From: Phycisphaerae bacterium
GTDB taxonomy: Bacteria > Planctomycetota > Phycisphaerae > UBA1845 > Fen-1342
NCBI GenBank assembly: GCA_963675745.2
Contig: CAXXWX010000026.1
Span: 800,001 to 864,000, forward strand
Length of the DNA stretch: 64,000 bases
Direction: 5' to 3'
Each line of letters begins with the position of its first letter. The first letter of the stretch is position 1. Below are positions 56,356-64,000 of the stretch, piece by piece. Below the pieces are notes generated by a model. It did no database searches. It was not told the DNA's origin and saw nothing but the letters and a program-made list of their open reading frames with translations. A program made the translations under genes and the position numbers.

Positions 56356-57135
56356 TCAATCACCACGCCGACAGACCATGATCAAGTCGGCGCTCTCCTC
56401 ACGAACGTACGGCTCGTCGTTGTACCCGCCATAGAACCGTGTGTCACCGCCGCCGCCCTGCTGGACGGCGCGCCGGAGCTCATCAGCCTCGATACCGCGG
56501 ACCACGGCGGTGCTGGTGAGCTCTTGCGGCGGGTCGCTCGACAAATCTACCTCGACGAATTCGACGTACCCCACGCCGCCGGCGCGGTGGATTCCCTTGA
56601 GCAGCAGCGTGTCACGTCCACGCATCGTTTGGCGCAGGCACTTCTGCCAGATGGTCGGCCCCTCCTCCAGCCGCCAGAGATTGAGCACCTGGACCATGCA
56701 GAGGCCACCCGGACGCACCGCGGCGAGCATTTGAGCGATTACCGTGGCGACCTGGATCTGATCCGCACAGATGGCCAGTGAATTGCCGACGCAGACCACG
56801 TTGTCGAAGGTGCCGGCGTGCTCGGGCGGTTGATCAAACGAGCGTACCACCCAGCGCAGGCGTTCGTTCTCGCCGTGCCGGGCGCGGCTGGTCTCGATCA
56901 TCTCCGCACTGAGGTCCGCGCCGGTAACATCCAGCCCCCAGGAGTGAAAGAGTGCCGCATGGTGTCCGGTGCCGCACGCGACATCCAGCACCCGGTCGCC
57001 GCTGCTCGATCGAAACAGCCGCTTGTAGAACGGCGTTTCGTGGGCCAGTCTTCGTGGCCAATTGACCATGGCGTCGTAGCGCTCGACGGCGCTTTCGAAA
57101 ATGCTGCCCTCGGGCGCGGCTGACATTGTCATCAC
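56356..57135 (-). CDS. Class I SAM-dependent methyltransferase
   Basis: VLDVACGTG, G.DLS.EM, FD.V.C.GNSL, RPGG. Confidence 0.9.
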   Translation of the reverse strand: MMTMSAAPEGSIFESAVERYDAMVNWPRRLAHETPFYKRLFRSSSGDRVLDVACGTGHHAALFHSWGLDVTGADLSAEMIETSRARHGENERLRWVVRSFDQPPEHAGTFDNVVCVGNSLAICADQIQVATVIAQMLAAVRPGGLCMVQVLNLWRLEEGPTIWQKCLRQTMRGRDTLLLKGIHRAGGVGYVEFVEVDLSSDPPQELTSTAVVRGIEADELRRAVQQGGGGDTRFYGGYNDEPYVREESADLIMVCRRGD

Positions 57136-58322
57136 CTTTCGATGGTGCCGTGCATTGCCTTCCGCGCCGCCACGACGTGTTCGTAAAACGCCGCCAACTC
57201 GCGCGCGTGCCTTGCCATCGAGGCCTGCTGGCGGAACTCACCGGCCACGGCCTGGCAGGCGTGCTTCAGCTCGGGTGATAGGCAGTGCTTGATCGCATTG
57301 GCCAGCGCCGTGGCGTCCGCCGGTGAATCCAGCACAACGCCGTGCTTGTCCGGCTGCATCATTTCGGCGGCACCGTTGAAGCAGGTGGTCACCACCGGCA
57401 GTCCATAGGAGAGGGCCTCCAGCACAACGCGGCTGCACGGGTCGTACCAGGTGGGGTGTGCCAGCACATCCGCCGCCGCGTACCAGTCGGACAGGTCGGC
57501 CGTCGCCCCCAGCCAGCGCACCCGGTCGGCGAGGCGCAAGCGTCGTGCCAGTCGCTCGTACGCGGGGCGCTTGCCGTCGCCAGCGATGATGAGCACCACA
57601 CCCGGCGCATCCAGCCGAGCAAACGCGATCAGCAGCTCGCGCAGCCCCTTCAGCTTGTAGTTGTGCCCGACGAACAGGACCAGCGGGGTTGCATCTGGAA
57701 TCCGCTCCCGCGCGCGCAACTCCGCGCCGGCGCGTGATGTGACGGCGGTGTCCACATCGACACCGTTGAATACGACGCGCACCAGGTCGGCCGGGTAGTC
57801 GAATCCATCCACGACCTGCCGGCGCACATAGTCCGAAACCGCCGCCACATGCGGCCGGCGACGGCCTCGGAGCAGCTCGCGTTCGAGCAGTACCAGGAAA
57901 CGCTGGCGCCAGCTCAACCGTCGATCGACCCACTTCATCATGCGCGCGACGATCGAGCGTTCGAGTGCCACATTGCGCGCGATCGTCTCAGCGTAGGTTC
58001 CTCCGCGCGGCTGATACACGTTGGCCGACATGCACGGCATGACCGCGTGGACTATGTCGTAGCCCTCTTCGCGACAGTGCCGATCGGCGCCGCGCACAAA
58101 GCCGATCACCCGTGCGATTCGCGAACCGCTGGTCACGCGGATGCGCTCGAAGGCCACACCCGGTACGGCGGCGTCGCTGTCGGTCGCATCATCCGCAGCG
58201 CGGCACACCACGGTCACGTCCAGGCCGAGAGCGGCGAGGTTCCGCGCCATCTCCACGGTCGATGTCTCAGCGCCGCCGCGCTGCACATCAACGGTCTCTT
58301 GAACAATGGCGATTCTCATCAT
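57132..58322 (-). CDS. GT4 glycosyltransferase (WaaG/RfaG-like)
   Basis: GGAE, NGVD, F.G.....KG, PT.YDPCS.VVLEA...GLPVVT. Confidence 0.9.
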   Translation of the reverse strand: MMRIAIVQETVDVQRGGAETSTVEMARNLAALGLDVTVVCRAADDATDSDAAVPGVAFERIRVTSGSRIARVIGFVRGADRHCREEGYDIVHAVMPCMSANVYQPRGGTYAETIARNVALERSIVARMMKWVDRRLSWRQRFLVLLERELLRGRRRPHVAAVSDYVRRQVVDGFDYPADLVRVVFNGVDVDTAVTSRAGAELRARERIPDATPLVLFVGHNYKLKGLRELLIAFARLDAPGVVLIIAGDGKRPAYERLARRLRLADRVRWLGATADLSDWYAAADVLAHPTWYDPCSRVVLEALSYGLPVVTTCFNGAAEMMQPDKHGVVLDSPADATALANAIKHCLSPELKHACQAVAGEFRQQASMARHARELAAFYEHVVAARKAMHGTIER

Positions 58323-59170
58323 GCCCGGCCCTTGCGAATCTCACGTCGTAAGATCGCGTCGCTGCGGCGCGCGACGCGCACGGCAAACCAGCGCACGCGC
58401 GGCGCGCCGCGCGGCAGGCTGAGATAGGCCTCTAGCAGGCGCAGTCGATCGGCCCGTGATGCACCAACCCGGCGCGCCGAGTAATCGAGCTGCGACAGGT
58501 CCTTGAGGACCCAACGCATCCGCCGCAGGTGCGGGCGGTGCGTGCGCGCGAGATCGATCAGCGCGAATGATGGCGGGCGGCGCCCGTCGGGATCGAGGTC
58601 TACGAAGATGTGGCAGAGATACAGATCGCGGTGGCAGTAGCTGGTCTGGTGGAACGCCGACACAAAACGTCCCAGGCGTCTGATCATGTCGAGACGAGCC
58701 AGGCCGCGCGTTATCGGTGCGCCGCGCTGCTCGCACTCACGCCACACGCGGTCAAACGCGTTTCCAGGAACGCGCCGCAGCAGGACAGCGCTGCGACGTT
58801 CGAAAGGGCCGACCATGCTCTCGACGACACCGACCGGCTCGGGCACGGGCAGATAGGCCTCGGACAGCCGCACCGATTGCCGGTATTCCCACCAAGCCCG
58901 ACTGTGCCACGGGAATTGGCGCAGAAGGCGGTCGAGCTGCTCGCGTAGGGGCGTACGGCCATAGCGTTTGACGTACACGACGGCCGCGCCATCGTCGGTG
59001 GGCAACTCCCAGCGCCAGCGCTGCCGACCACCCAGGCCGGGCTTGGTCAGCGCGGTCCACGATCCGGCGAGTTCGTCCGGATCAAAACCCCTGTTCAGGA
59101 AGCGACGCAAGTGACTTGCGCCCGCGGCGCCGAGCAATCGTTGCCAGGCAGAGGCGATCATCTCTCTCAC
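58319..59170 (-). CDS. LPS core heptose kinase (WaaP/InaA family)
   Basis: YVKRY, HRDLYLCHIF, LIDLAR, KDLSQL. Confidence 0.85.
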   Translation of the reverse strand: MREMIASAWQRLLGAAGASHLRRFLNRGFDPDELAGSWTALTKPGLGGRQRWRWELPTDDGAAVVYVKRYGRTPLREQLDRLLRQFPWHSRAWWEYRQSVRLSEAYLPVPEPVGVVESMVGPFERRSAVLLRRVPGNAFDRVWRECEQRGAPITRGLARLDMIRRLGRFVSAFHQTSYCHRDLYLCHIFVDLDPDGRRPPSFALIDLARTHRPHLRRMRWVLKDLSQLDYSARRVGASRADRLRLLEAYLSLPRGAPRVRWFAVRVARRSDAILRREIRKGRA

Positions 59171-59171
59171 G

Positions 59172-60095
59172 TTAGCCGGCACCCTCGGTTGTAGCCGATC
59201 CGATCGCGGCGCTCTCCTCGGCGGCGAGCGATTTGCTCCAGGCCACAAACCGGCTGTTCATGCGAATCCGCTGTTGCTCGTGGTGGCACCACTGCCGGGC
59301 CATGCGGGATAGCTCTCCGATCTGCTCCTTTGCGTCGGCGGTCAGGTGCTTGATACCGAAGTAATGGCGCATGAAGCGCAGGCGTTCGGTCCGCGTGGTG
59401 AACGGAATCGCGGACGTGGCCATCTTGGCCAGCTCCCACAGCCACCAGCGGCCGCCGCGGCCGAGCCGCTCTATCCTCTTGGGCGGCTCCGAGTCCAAAA
59501 GGAAGAACTCGGGCTCGGCGGTGGGCCCCCAACGGACGAGCACGTTGCGCCAGAACAAGCGCCCGTGGGCGAACCCGGTACGATGCAGGCGGGCGATCAT
59601 CTCGGCCAGGCGCTCGATCATGAGCATACGCTGCCGATGGGCTAGCTGGGTCTCTCCGGATTGGACGGCCTGGGCGAACGTGGTCAAGTTCGGCGCGCCG
59701 GGCACGTCCTCGGTGATGAGGAAGCAGGCGGCAATGAGATATCCGCAGCGCCGCCAGCCATATGCCACCGGCCGCACCGCCGGCACGCCGAGCTCGCGCA
59801 TGGCGTGCAGCGCGCGGGCTTCGGCCTTTGCGCGGTGGGTGCCAAAGAAAGTCCCGCGAAAGAATCCGCGAAAACGCCGGGCCCAGGTCGGATAGAAATA
59901 GCGTTTGACATAGAAGCCGATGCCGCCGTTTGGGGCGGGAATGTAGGTCGAGTCGGTGGTGCGACTCCAGGCGACGATTTTGCCGTCGGTGCGAGTGAGA
60001 ATGTCCTCCACGCGGTCCAGGCCCGCGGCCTTCAGCGCCGCGCGACACGCCGGCTCGGTCCGCATGTTGTCTGTGTGGAACATTCGGGCACTCAC
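59172..60095 (-). CDS. LPS kinase (InaA/WaaP/Kdo family) homolog, catalytic Asp substituted
   Basis: YVKRY, E...L......GVP, LITE, HGRLFWRN, FFLLD. Confidence 0.8.
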   Translation of the reverse strand: MSARMFHTDNMRTEPACRAALKAAGLDRVEDILTRTDGKIVAWSRTTDSTYIPAPNGGIGFYVKRYFYPTWARRFRGFFRGTFFGTHRAKAEARALHAMRELGVPAVRPVAYGWRRCGYLIAACFLITEDVPGAPNLTTFAQAVQSGETQLAHRQRMLMIERLAEMIARLHRTGFAHGRLFWRNVLVRWGPTAEPEFFLLDSEPPKRIERLGRGGRWWLWELAKMATSAIPFTTRTERLRFMRHYFGIKHLTADAKEQIGELSRMARQWCHHEQQRIRMNSRFVAWSKSLAAEESAAIGSATTEGAG

Positions 60096-60137
60096 CTGCC
60101 TGAAGCGGCTGCTCGCGTCTGAACCGGGCGGCGTCCG

Positions 60138-61223
60138 CTACACGGCTGCGCCGCTGCTGCTGCGCTGCATTACCTGTGCCACGGCCGCCATGACCATATC
60201 CGCCGTGACCAGCCTCATGCACTCGAGGTCAAGCGGGCACTTCTTCAACTGGCACGGACCACACTCTACCAGCGCCTGGAGCTTGATCTCCAGTGGATGA
60301 TGCGAATCCGTCCATTCCTGGAACGTCGGGCCGAAGATGCACACCGTCGGCACATCGAACGCCAGGCCGTAGTGACGCGGGCCGGTATCGTTGCACACCA
60401 GCGCGGCCGCATCGCGCACCAGCGGCTTGAGCGACCCGAGCGTCGTGCCCGGATTGTAACAGACGGTGACTTCCGCGTCGGCCCTGTCGGCGATCGTGCG
60501 CATCAGGGCCGCTTCGTTCGTCGCACCGACAATAACCGGCTGGAGATCGAGTTCCCGCCGCAGCCGCATCGCAACTTCAGCAAAGCGCTCAGGCAACCAG
60601 CATTTGGCCGCCCCGAACGCCGCTCCGACGTTAATCACCGCGTAGCGCTTCGGCGTCAGCTTGTAGTGTTGCTGCAACGCGGCGCCGGCGGTTTCCTGTT
60701 GCTCGGTCACACCCAGGCGCAAGCGGAAATCCGTCACCTCGCAGCCGGCGCGCTCGGCGAGGGCGGCGTAATACGGCAGCATCGGCGCCGGGACGTATTC
60801 GCCGCGCAGCTTGAGCGGGCAGAGCCGGTCGGTCAGCATCCAGCTACGGCCGTCGCGGGCGTATCCTATCCGCCGCGGCACACCGCCGAGGTAGACCGCC
60901 AGTGCCGAGCGAAACGAGTTCGTCAGCAACAGCGCCAGGTCGAACCGCCGACGTCGAATCTCGCGTCCGAGGCCGACTAGGCGAACGTCGCGTCCGACGC
61001 CCTTCCCCTCGGGCCAATACAGCTCGGCGTCATGCCACGCACACCCGGCGACAATCTCGCGGGCATACCTGCGGCAAAGAAACGTAATCTCAGCATCTTC
61101 GAACCGCGCACGCAAAGCCGCCAGAATCGGCGAAGCCATCACAACATCGCCAACCCAGTTGGGAAGGGTAATGAGAACGCGACGGGGCGCTTGGATTACA
61201 GGGCCTTGGGCGGTTATTGGCAT
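60138..61223 (-). CDS. waaF: Lipopolysaccharide heptosyltransferase II (GT9)
   Basis: PNWVGDVVM, GA.FG.AKCW, NDTGPRH...A, IFGPT. Confidence 0.92.
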   Translation of the reverse strand: MPITAQGPVIQAPRRVLITLPNWVGDVVMASPILAALRARFEDAEITFLCRRYAREIVAGCAWHDAELYWPEGKGVGRDVRLVGLGREIRRRRFDLALLLTNSFRSALAVYLGGVPRRIGYARDGRSWMLTDRLCPLKLRGEYVPAPMLPYYAALAERAGCEVTDFRLRLGVTEQQETAGAALQQHYKLTPKRYAVINVGAAFGAAKCWLPERFAEVAMRLRRELDLQPVIVGATNEAALMRTIADRADAEVTVCYNPGTTLGSLKPLVRDAAALVCNDTGPRHYGLAFDVPTVCIFGPTFQEWTDSHHPLEIKLQALVECGPCQLKKCPLDLECMRLVTADMVMAAVAQVMQRSSSGAAV

Positions 61224-61354
61224 TGTCGCGGTAGTCTAACGCACGGGTGTGTTGGTGTAGAGGCGGTATTTCACGCGACGCGAATACGGCGGAAGCCATC
61301 TTTGGCGCGGCAGGGCGTTGCGTCGTTGTTGATTGGAGGCTTTACTTTGCATCC

Positions 61355-62275
61355 ATGGTGGGCAAGAGAGAACGAGCTTCTGGCGACAACCCCTCAATAA
61401 TCGATCAGGCGAAGCGCCTCGCGTTGATCGCGATCTGCTCGGATGATCGGCTCCTCGATACACTTGTATTGAAGGGTGGCAACGCGCTCCAGCTTGCGTA
61501 CGGACTCACCGCTCGCGCGTCGATTGACCTTGACTTCTCGATGGAAGGCGAGTTCGCCCCGGACTCGCTCGAGCCAACGCGCACACGGATCGCACATCGC
61601 CTCCGTCAATCATTTCGGAGCGCGGGACTCGACGTATTCGACATCGAATTCACTGAACGTCCGCCGGAAGTGTCGGAGGAGTTCGCGAGTTTCTGGGGTG
61701 GCTATCGCGTGGAGTTCAAGGTCTTGCCGGCCGCGCGTTTCCGCGAGCTTGCGGGGGATCTCAGTGAGGCGCGTCGGCAAGCTCTGCCGGTCGGGCCAAG
61801 GAATCGCTCGCGGTTTCGCATCGATATCAGCAAATTCGAGCGCTGCGTCGAAAAGAAGCGGATCGAGATCGACGGTTACACTGTCTTCGTCTACACACCG
61901 GCGATGATCATCGCGGAGAAGCTGCGTGCGATTTGTCAGCAGCGCCCGGATTACACAACACGGCTACAGAAGCATCGCAGCGAACGAGCACGTGACTTTT
62001 TCGATATTCACGAGACTCTGCAACACTGCCGGGCGGAACTCGATGCCCCAGCGTACGCGCGTCTGATCCGCGAGGTCTTTGAAGCGAAACGTGTTCCATT
62101 GCGGTTGCTCGGGGAAATCTCTCAGGACCGCGAGCTGCATCGAACGGGCTGGCCGGCGGTGGTTGACACCACCGAACCAACCGTCAACCTCCGCTCGTTC
62201 GACTTCTATTTCGACTTTGTTCTCGACATGTGCAAACGACTACAGCCCTTGTGGAACGAATATCCTCCAGCTTGA
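61355..62275 (+). CDS. AbiEii/AbiGii family nucleotidyltransferase (type IV TA toxin)
   Basis: LKGGNAL...Y...RASIDLDFS; C-terminal EKLRAI and RARDFFD. Confidence 0.88.
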   Translation: MVGKRERASGDNPSIIDQAKRLALIAICSDDRLLDTLVLKGGNALQLAYGLTARASIDLDFSMEGEFAPDSLEPTRTRIAHRLRQSFRSAGLDVFDIEFTERPPEVSEEFASFWGGYRVEFKVLPAARFRELAGDLSEARRQALPVGPRNRSRFRIDISKFERCVEKKRIEIDGYTVFVYTPAMIIAEKLRAICQQRPDYTTRLQKHRSERARDFFDIHETLQHCRAELDAPAYARLIREVFEAKRVPLRLLGEISQDRELHRTGWPAVVDTTEPTVNLRSFDFYFDFVLDMCKRLQPLWNEYPPA

Positions 62276-63130
62276 ATCATGGCGCGGGAGCTTGAGCTGG
62301 TAATCGAGATAGAAGTCGTGCGTGATTTCGAACTTGCTGCGAAACAGCTCGATCGCATGTGCGGCATAGGCGCCGGATCGCTCCAGGTAAAACCCAATTG
62401 CCTGATGGTACGGGTACACGTAGTCGAGCTGGCGCAGTAGGGCCGCGAGCCGATTTGTCGACGCGCGGTCGGCCGCCGCGCGATACGCTTTGAGTACCTC
62501 CGCAACACCGCCGGCATAGAACGGCCGCACCGCGATGTCGATGAGCGTGCGCTCGATGTCGGTGACGCGCGCTTCGATTGTCGCGGGCGACTTTCCACGG
62601 CCGACGCGCCGGACTTCGACACCGAGATAGCCGGTGTTCTTGCCGTTTAAAAGGAACACGCGTTGCCCGTCAACAGTGGCGACGTTTGACGTAATCCTCG
62701 GACGACGTTTGAACGCCACGTCGATCTGATGCTGGGTGAGCGATGCGCCACTTATGGGCTTGGCCGGTTGTTCGTGGTTTACGTAGATTGTCTTTGGGTC
62801 CTGCTCGGTGAGCTCGTGCATCGCCATTGCGCTGTAGTGCGAGAAGTGGCAATGCGGCTTCAACGTCAGCAGAACTTCGAGAAGATCGACCTCGCCCCAC
62901 GTATAGCGAATCTCCTTGCGATGCGGGAATGGCAGGTCGACGCGCCTGAGCTTGGAGCTGCTGCGGAGGTAGCGGATGAACTCGTTGACCGTCGTTCTTT
63001 GCGCCAGCCGCCATTGGTCGCGATTTTGAGAAAGCAGTCCTTCAAGGTCGGAGTGACGTAACACAATCTGCCCCGCGGCCTCGATCTCGCGGATTATGTC
63101 TTTCCTGGCTATCTGAAGGCGTGTTGGCAT
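62240..63130 (-). CDS. AbiEi-like antitoxin / transcriptional regulator (type IV TA)
   Basis: SH.SA...H.LT.Q.P..IY and T..ERTLID...P...GG..EV motifs; alternative ATG at 63145. Confidence 0.8.
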   Translation of the reverse strand: MPTRLQIARKDIIREIEAAGQIVLRHSDLEGLLSQNRDQWRLAQRTTVNEFIRYLRSSSKLRRVDLPFPHRKEIRYTWGEVDLLEVLLTLKPHCHFSHYSAMAMHELTEQDPKTIYVNHEQPAKPISGASLTQHQIDVAFKRRPRITSNVATVDGQRVFLLNGKNTGYLGVEVRRVGRGKSPATIEARVTDIERTLIDIAVRPFYAGGVAEVLKAYRAAADRASTNRLAALLRQLDYVYPYHQAIGFYLERSGAYAAHAIELFRSKFEITHDFYLDYQLKLPRHDSSWRIFVPQGL

Positions 63131-63141
63131 CCAGCGATCTC

Positions 63142-63402
63142 GCATTAAAATGTACAAGTACATTTTAATGCTATAGCTGGTGCACGTCAACCAAGCGCAA
63201 GCCGGTTATAAAGCTACAGATGCCACTTTCAGTGTAACACGTCGGGGCATCACCGTACTGTGTAGTATACATACTACACAGTACATCGGTATATGCGCTT
63301 TAGATCTGGAGACCTATAACTTATGCCTATGGCCCGTATTCTGAGGGCGTTTGTGTCTGCCCGCGCTGCCGCGCAATGTGGCGTATAAATACGCCACATT
63401 GC
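63142..63402. repeat. Three perfect 14-2-14 palindromes (63142-171, 63255-284, 63373-402)
   Basis: GCATTAAAATGTAC-AA-GTACATTTTAATGC; GTACTGTGTAGTAT-AC-ATACTACACAGTAC; GCAATGTGGCGTAT-AA-ATACGCCACATTGC. Confidence 0.95.
63162..63190 (-). promoter_or_regulatory. Sigma70-type promoter of the antitoxin gene
   Basis: TTGACG (63190-85), 17 nt, TAAAAT (63167-62) on the minus strand. Confidence 0.75.
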
Positions 63403-63427: not shown

Positions 63428-64000
63428 TCAGCCTGCTGACGCTGGCGTCAGCCGCCACAGCCATTCTCGATTGCCGCCTTGGCCGCGGATTGGGCTTTCG
63501 ATTTCGCCGGCGATTTGCCAGCCGAGGTCGAGCACGTCCTGGCGGCAGGTGGCGAGCACTGACGGGAGGTGTTCGTCGGGGAGGACGCCTTTGCTGAGCT
63601 GGTCCTTGGCCGCTTCGTATTGGGGCTTGATCAGCGTTACGACGACGCCGGCGGGTTTCAGACAGCGCCGGGCGGCGGGGAGGATCAGGCGTTGGGGGGT
63701 CCAGCCGACGTCGATGCTGACCAGGTCGCAGGGCTCGGGGGCGGTCCAGGCAAGCGCGTTGGTGCGCTCGCAGACCACCACGCGCTGGTCTTTGCGCAGC
63801 GCGTAATCCAGCACGCCATAACCCGGATCGACGGCGTAGACGCGCGCGGCGCCGTTTTGCAACAGGCAGTCGACAAACCCGCCGGCGTGGCTGCCGAAGT
63901 CGGCGCAGATCCAGCCGGTGGGATCGAGCGCGAAAGCCTCCAATGCCGCCGACAGCTTTGTGCCGCCGCGTGAGACGTGCCGTCGCGGGTTGGAGGGGGA
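63428..64000 (-). CDS. tlyA: TlyA family rRNA 2'-O-methyltransferase, 5' end beyond the window
   Basis: VSRGG.KL, D.GS..GGF.DCLL..GA..V.AVD.G, LIKPQYE, SPI.G..GN.E. Confidence 0.92.
   Translation of the reverse strand, partial: SPSNPRRHVSRGGTKLSAALEAFALDPTGWICADFGSHAGGFVDCLLQNGAARVYAVDPGYGVLDYALRKDQRVVVCERTNALAWTAPEPCDLVSIDVGWTPQRLILPAARRCLKPAGVVVTLIKPQYEAAKDQLSKGVLPDEHLPSVLATCRQDVLDLGWQIAGEIESPIRGQGGNREWLWRLTPASAG

Follow-up and report, generated by a model that had tools for sequence, protein, structure and literature searches.

AbiE-Type Toxin-Antitoxin Systems

The antitoxins AbiEi and Rv2827c repress their own synthesis through inverted repeats in their promoters (PMC3985639, PMC7319586). 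In S. agalactiae AbiE, antitoxin and toxin form a bicistronic operon with one repeat pair, which is conserved on its outer side: 11 bp-N27-11 bp, in 23-bp halves with 4 mismatches (Dy et al. 2014, PMC3985639). This system has been reclassified as type VII, and AbiEi is reported to neutralise the toxin by induced auto-phosphorylation (bioRxiv 10.64898/2026.01.19.700257). The Rv2827c-Rv2826c pair of M. tuberculosis (MenAT4) is also an operon; it has four imperfect 23-bp repeats with 13-bp spacers, contiguous within 131 bp and bound with graded affinity (Beck et al. 2020, PMC7319586). Only a small number of natural bacterial promoters are known to be controlled through cruciforms.

The locus described here lies in a window of 64,000 nucleotides (the whole stretch of DNA analysed) from a Phycisphaerae bacterium. 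An earlier note, made from the letters of the window, had drawn attention to three different perfect palindromes upstream of an AbiEi-like antitoxin gene.

A Convergent Module between Two Host Genes

Is the protein behind the palindromes an AbiEi antitoxin? This identification is upheld by PF09407, by PADLOC and by structural matches (Table 1). The antitoxin model (pLDDT 94) has a winged-helix N-terminal domain and an NTase-like C-terminal domain, the combination that marks COG5340/AbiEi proteins. It matches Rv2827c (1ZEL; Z 15.1, rmsd 4.8, 245 aligned) and S. agalactiae AbiEi (6Y8Q; Z 12.1, rmsd 4.7, 189 aligned). A homodimer prediction scored 0.00, which is evidence neither for nor against a dimer. 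The toxin gene, which the earlier note did not mention, is convergent to the antitoxin gene, and the two 3' ends overlap by 36 nt. Its translation shows KGG..DLD, in keeping with the GG..DhD motif of polymerase-beta-type nucleotidyltransferases. A weak -10-like hexamer lies about 6 nt before the toxin ATG (61320-61357, plus strand), and the gene is possibly leaderless; the 40 upstream regions compared showed no evident conserved promoter for the toxin.

Table 1. Features of the toxin-antitoxin module, its palindrome array and its flanks, in window coordinates.
Feature	Position	Strand	Remarks
waaF-like heptosyltransferase, host gene flanking the module	60138..61223	-	
AbiEii (DUF1814) nucleotidyltransferase toxin, 306 aa	61355..62275	+	PF08843 E 1e-26; PADLOC AbiEii
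AbiEi/Rv2827c-type antitoxin, 296 aa	62240..63130	-	PF09407 E 4e-5; PADLOC AbiEi E 2e-16
Palindrome 1, promoter-proximal	63142..63171	.	-10 box in upstream arm; divergent core GTAC
Predicted sigma-70 promoter of antitoxin gene	63162..63190	-	10/12 consensus matches
Micro-ORF, 14 codons, MP.R start	63206..63250	-	judged chance
Palindrome 2	63255..63284	.	genome's best family-consensus match; score 37.2, top of 6 genome matches
10-of-11 match to antitoxin 5'-end stretch (63112-63122)	63340..63350	-	z 2.1; borderline, no family trait
Palindrome 3, distal	63373..63402	.	26 bp from tlyA-like stop codon; second genome match, score 14.0
tlyA/FtsJ-like methyltransferase, host gene, other flank	63428..64000	-	runs off window

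The G+C content is 0.66-0.68 in the flanks, 0.58 in the module and 0.49 in the array. Among the relatives' loci, tlyA is directly adjacent to waaF in five of 11, and the module is absent within the 1.5-kb flank in all 11 tlyA/waaF loci. Given this low G+C and the adjacency of tlyA and waaF without the module in relatives, the module is most likely an insertion between the tlyA-like and waaF-like genes. Its distribution is patchy, with any match in 23 of 300 genomes of the class. The minus-strand stretch 56356-61223 holds a host lipopolysaccharide-type cluster: the heptosyltransferase, two Kdo/WaaP-family kinases, a family-4 glycosyltransferase and then a likely methyltransferase.

Three Palindromes upstream of the Antitoxin Gene

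The three perfect 14-2-14 inverted repeats, with starts 113 and 118 bp apart, are confirmed, and the half-site G-Y-A-n-T-n5-G-T-A-Y can be read in all three. The 14-2-14 geometry stands as a local form, in which the central pair is mismatched in 3/3 palindromes; the true unit is a spacerless palindrome of 28-30 bp with a free central pair. Maximal perfect 14-2-14 repeats number four in the 5.2-Mb genome, three of them being those of the window, and no 10-2-10 repeat appeared when the intergenic region was shuffled (0/3000 shuffles). As single strands, all three give stable folds (DNA z -4.9 to -5.8).

Palindrome 1 falls below the cut-off of the family weight matrix, while palindromes 2 and 3 pass. 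When the genome was scanned with this matrix, six matches were returned; only palindromes 2 and 3 are symmetric, and no further symmetric family site was found elsewhere in the genome. This speaks against REP or REPIN elements, of which many dispersed copies would be expected. Intrinsic terminators were also rejected, as the combination of a GC-rich stem and a U-tract is lacking; no U-tract follows palindrome 3. LexA (SOS) boxes have the register CTG-N10-CAG; this reading was dropped as well, the family core being in a different register and found across phyla. Other long, perfect, near-spacerless palindromes (arms 12-23 bp) occur in the genome at C3:207617-207662, C22:34803-34850, C15:408955-408990, C18:8730-8765 and C5:68371-68394. 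An 8-2-8 GC-rich inverted repeat at 63435-63452, inside the 3' end of the tlyA-like gene, is probably unrelated.

The promoter TTGACG-17-TAAAAT, read by the earlier note, is confirmed on the minus strand and overlaps palindrome 1. As far as sequence can tell, an inverted repeat thus covers the antitoxin promoter, as in AbiE systems. Transcription is predicted to start near the centre of palindrome 1. The alternative ATG at 63145 gives way as a start codon to the likelier ATG at 63130 (MPTRLQ), which is that of the database gene call and of most homologues. Because the -10 box is palindromic, a mirror promoter-like site on the plus strand (TTGGCA-16-TAAAAT, 63124-63151) reads outward through the array. 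The element ACGCC(T/C)TCAGA is indeed present beside palindromes 1 and 3 (Table 1). The micro-ORF reported downstream of palindrome 2 exists, read from 63250 to 63206, but is judged to be chance, the family relic test being negative.

Layout and Arrays across the Family

A protein search returned 2279 antitoxin homologues. Loci were collected from genomes of the class, from the best 80 of 533 genome stretches, from the best 80 of 554 metagenome stretches, from 12 of 48 plasmid records and from two betaproteobacterial families; related loci are not independent of each other. IMG/VR and the phage collection held no antitoxin homologue, nor did E. coli genomes in a distant DNA search with one betaproteobacterial gene. 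A PDB sequence search and NCBIfam gave nothing useful. For one homologue, a search of RNA runs returned a single run, holding 0.07 of words.

Gene layout was counted in 174 loci that retain the N-terminus and reach at least 40% identity. The toxin is convergent in 166 and operonic in none, and eight have no toxin match; the 12 plasmid loci comprise nine convergent and three divergent pairs. The bicistronic antitoxin-toxin operon of AbiE is not found here, and the family is therefore filed as an AbiE variant and not as a canonical member. The 3' ends of toxin and antitoxin overlap in 127 of 134 loci, by exactly 24 nt in 84/134, a pattern that points to a conserved frame of overlap and to possible antisense control. 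The toxin is interrupted in 7/141 loci. In the lactic acid bacterium plasmids L192, L195 and L197 the pair is divergent, and two to three near-identical sites, spaced at 72-77 bp, lie in the stretch that separates the genes. The toxin ORF annotated in L192 is short, at 381 bp, and a TIR-domain gene comes after it.

Do homologous antitoxins have such palindromes upstream? Dereplication left 149 loci, and the 124 with at least 500 bp of upstream sequence were used for the count. Between two and five palindromes were found in 121 of these non-redundant loci (none in one locus, one in two, two in 40, three in 64, four in 12 and five in five). The upstream regions hold 347 palindromes, compared with one in an equal length of coding DNA and 2.0 per shuffle set. 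All 12 plasmid loci have at least one site and 11 have at least two. The centre of the proximal site lies at a median of 38 bp before the estimated start, and sites are spaced at a median of 111 bp (10-90%: 75-176). Helical phasing of the spacing at 10.5-11 bp, judged against a jitter null, is weak (p 0.02 over the tested range; side peak at 13.75). Of the proximal sites, 29% have a -35-like hexamer ahead of them, versus 12% and 7% of distal ones.

Anatomy of the Family Site

Counting outward from the centre, a requirement for symmetry at 12 or more of 15 positions, as in the first set of palindromes, imposes a boundary at position 15 from the outset. Because circularity had to be avoided, sites were also called from positions 2-5 alone, which gave 354 sites in 120 of the 124 loci, and claims on the boundary use this core-only calling. 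The half-site tends towards RTNYTATGTAGTATA, and the centre is usually GTATA|TATAC. Information amounts to 1.4-1.7 bits at positions 2-5, is moderate at 6 and 8, and is low at 7, 9-11 and 14; at positions 12-13 it is 0.02-0.06 bit, with an expected symmetry of 0.26-0.38.

How far does the symmetry reach? In the 354 core-only sites it is 0.89-0.93 at positions 6-14, 0.62 at 15, 0.46 at 16 and 0.30 by 23, whereas 0.26-0.50 is expected at 9-14 from base composition or from arms paired between sites of the same locus. Where positions 2-8 are symmetric (298 sites), positions 9-14 are symmetric in 0.95-0.98, versus 0.26-0.39 in 759 background sites of the genome. The outer hexamer (9-14) takes 210 forms in 265 perfect sites and is identical in only 4 of 199 pairs of sites within a locus. 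Where 15 and 16 are mismatched, 66 of 68 sites are still symmetric at pair 14, among them 18 of the 19 that have a non-consensus base there; the corresponding counts are 56/106 for pair 15 and 31/109 for pair 16. At position 15 a purine is preferred on each side independently, and the position is often asymmetric. A tail of symmetry remains at 16-19 (0.41-0.46 versus 0.26 by chance). Family conservation is central (positions 2-8), and the arms end at 14-15. Very long perfect outer arms (about 20-28 bp) are seen in L005/L036, L068 and L017, some with a 3-nt mismatch beside the core, and are consistent with template-switch extension.

A pyrimidine-purine pair occupies position 2 in 341 of 347 sites. 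Known DNA tetraloops are described as closed by an L1-L4 pair, and the likeness of the family site to them lies in the pyrimidine-purine closing pair (PMC9975016). Mismatches comprise 13 G-T, 22 A-C and 43 others, so that wobble pairs are not enriched on either strand. The idea that the symmetric span equals the transcription bubble was dropped, the -10 box being found at several positions.

Evolution of the Sites

The earlier note's remark that differences are compensated in both arms proved to be the main signal across the whole antitoxin family. Across 33 sites from 21 independent close pairs, 28 of the changes at positions 6-14 are paired and seven are single, although these sites were preselected to be at least 11/13 symmetric in both loci, which is a bias against single changes. 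In the flanks of the same pairs (16-30), paired changes number 13, against 179 that are single and 53 that are double but unpaired. One A-C intermediate was seen between two symmetric states. Divergence per base is 0.08-0.15 in the arms, 0.21 in the centre and 0.29-0.37 in the flanks, the arms being two to three times slower than the flanks. Positions 12-14 are also slower than the flanks, though at position 13 there is no consensus for the family or for a locus. Distal sites match proximal ones in perfection (0.81-0.86 perfect at 2-14) and are kept between close relatives.

The core type tracks the antitoxin tree, with a TTAT clade (seven rows, support 99) and a GC-core clade (19 rows, support 97), and the sites within a locus share the core type of that locus. 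Antitoxins of the GC-core clade have Q121R and have lost R75; in their sites, positions 2-3 occur in four forms and are symmetric in 31/31 sites, with a symmetric centre in 15. This joint shift of protein and core comprises two events or clades only and does not show co-evolution.

A second AbiEi of the same genome (contig C4, locus L002) is of the operon type and has an 18-1-18 palindrome at about 68798-68834 with a different core. It is part of a sister subfamily of the same design, with 15 sites in 10 loci (L002, one class relative and eight plasmid relatives, L216-L223, from 8 of 105 records). Here the core is GTCCT-N-AGGAC, the arms are perfect over 18-23 bp with unrelated outer sequences, and second copies lie 84-131 bp away. 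The plasmid matches of this subfamily include many enterobacterial and Xanthomonas records. The weak paralogue loci L214 and L215 have no sister-type site, and other AbiEi loci, such as L018 and L020, have canonical outer-conserved repeats around a longer, largely asymmetric spacer.

What Do the Palindromes Do?

The palindromes are very probably operators of the antitoxin, because they are strictly linked to its gene and overlap the promoter, because their core follows the antitoxin clade, and because AbiEi and Rv2827c are known to behave in this way. Of the interpretations offered in the earlier note, the multi-operator array is backed by the comparison: arrays recur in homologues, the core tracks the tree, the proximal site lies on the promoter and there is weak phasing. 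The two others have lost ground. The 10-of-11 match and the MP.R micro-ORF of the window had hinted that promoters and 5' ends of successive toxin-antitoxin variants lie stacked as relics, and arrays can arise by unit duplication, as in lactic acid bacteria and Flavobacterium plasmids, where near-identical sites have shared flanks. However, the DNA after distal sites scores on average 13.5 against the antitoxin 5' end versus 13.25 for shuffles, with z>3 in 6/207 (z = -0.4 and 2.1 in the window), and the distal sites equal the proximal ones in perfection and are conserved between close relatives. Decoys for non-cognate antitoxins fit no better, since the cores match the local antitoxin clade and the core of the genome's paralogue differs. 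Relics or decoys are thus a very improbable explanation.

Could the palindromes be hairpin substrates for recombination, used in the movement of the module? The insertion between tlyA and waaF, the patchy distribution and the frequent proximity to plasmid recombinase genes would suit such a role, but the sites lie upstream of the antitoxin only (a palindromic and core-like match was found in 1/100 toxin-side regions), the module has no recombinase, and no target duplication of more than 6 bp was found at it. Mobility sites are accordingly given very little credence. RNA hairpins, acting as terminators, processing signals or a repeat-type RNA antitoxin, would account for the stable single-strand folding and the fairly regular spacing of the copies. 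However, G-U pairs are not in excess on either strand, which speaks against an RNA helix, and symmetry reaches the 2-nt centre, whereas an RNA loop takes at least 3 nt. Of 337 sites, 23 have a T-tract behind them in sense and 30 in antisense orientation, versus a background of 7.6%, and Rfam gave no matches. As the predicted start is inside or beyond the proximal site, the distal sites would be upstream of the transcript. An RNA function is therefore very improbable.

The most substantial rival keeps the operators but reads them as duplex DNA: the antitoxin would recognise linear half-sites, with loose preferences over 15 bp, and the symmetry would be a by-product of polymerase template switching. 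Canonical AbiEi proteins bind linear half-sites (PMC3985639, PMC7319586), and for proteobacteria it has been proposed that template switching keeps short inverted repeats homogeneous (PMC5941160). The symmetry tail past position 15, the occasional long arms and the weak base preferences at 9-11, 14 and 15 point the same way. Against it, the step at 14 is the same across phyla, genome background palindromes show no such plateau, and the purine preference at position 15 acts on each side independently and often leaves the pair asymmetric. The terminal pair is symmetric even with non-consensus bases, which counts against switching because a switch would have no distal match on which to return. 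Positions 12-14 are also slower than the flanks in spite of the missing consensus at 13. The duplex account is a possible but rather doubtful one; if it were true, the set would document concerted evolution by template switching in nature with unusual clarity.

The preferred reading, for which the chances seem about equal either way, is that the palindromes are autoregulatory operators whose selected form is likely a paired DNA hairpin or cruciform, and that the antitoxin may also bind them in this form. A duplex reader gives no reason for the arms to agree at free positions, and so the arms must pair or copy each other; the 14-bp boundary across phyla and the slow, information-free positions then speak for a selected stem of 13 bp that ends in a small loop, with the pyrimidine-purine pair closing the loop. 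Several points count against the hairpin. S. agalactiae AbiEi and Rv2827c are reported to bind single half-sites with the partner repeat replaced, in probes of PCR or oligonucleotide DNA, and thus have no need of a hairpin (PMC3985639, PMC7319586). The core of palindrome 1 is atypical for the family. Cores centred on GC, which make up about 31 of 337 sites, should extrude poorly.

How might the array work under selection for pairing? The antitoxin would read the core bases and need a 13-bp stem of any sequence. The proximal site would block the sigma-70 promoter, and the distal sites, mostly without a -35 hexamer, may strengthen repression by looping or act as a buffer for the antitoxin. Since the toxin has its own transcription, directed head-on, it is the level of the antitoxin and of any antisense RNA over the toxin gene that would be set by the array. 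Neutralisation by auto-phosphorylation could allow the two genes to work without co-transcription. The symmetry tail beyond 15 indicates that template switching probably acts and may explain part of the signal; it would supply the paired mutations, while selection on pairing would fix the length. A stronger and more tentative proposal is that this widespread antitoxin clade represses its promoter by binding extruded hairpins, of which it would read a short core at the loop and measure a stem of 13 bp, whatever its sequence (18-23 bp in the sister subfamily), so that toxin-antitoxin balance would be wired to DNA topology. If this were true, a phage that nicks or relaxes the chromosome, or the arrival of the module as single-stranded DNA, would switch the antitoxin supply.

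Comparison with Known Systems

The protein family is already known, as is multi-site autoregulation for Rv2827c. In the literature searched, the arrays and the convergent layout are undescribed, although Supplementary Figure S8 of PMC3985639 (repeats of other abiE loci) and Hampton et al. 2018 (J Mol Biol) may bear on this. The non-operonic layout and the arrays of centre-conserved, free-armed palindromes of fixed length were not found there and are new in that sense. The family provides a comparative signature of DNA pairing, with free sequence, strict symmetry and fixed length in more than 300 sites from several phyla.

Two systems outside the AbiE group show parts of this picture. In Vibrio parahaemolyticus, the winged-helix regulator HlyU acts at a promoter DNA cruciform of exsA; there it is an activator that attenuates a single repressive cruciform, with no toxin-antitoxin system and no array (PMC10325908). 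The concerted evolution of short inverted repeats by template switching likewise yields paired changes that preserve the arms (Lavi et al. 2018, PMC5941160). By contrast with the family, this process is general, arm lengths decay smoothly, and no fixed boundary at 14 bp tied to a gene family is predicted.

Rv2827c is the closest solved fold and of similar size, and it has several upstream operator sites, as in the family; the repeats of the family are dispersed and perfect, those of Rv2827c contiguous and imperfect, and the portions of main text available for that system do not describe covariation of the structure type (PMC7319586). S. agalactiae AbiE has the same two folds and inverted repeats over the antitoxin promoter (PMC3985639). 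Its bicistronic operon and single repeat pair stand against a convergent or divergent layout, with 2-5 dispersed palindromes, in the family, and the convergent, 3'-overlapping arrangement itself departs from described AbiE operons. The canonical AbiEi box, with 23-bp halves and a conserved outer 11 bp, is not what the family has: unlike the repeats of S. agalactiae, its palindromes are spacerless and conserved at the centre, with outer arms that are free in sequence yet perfect.
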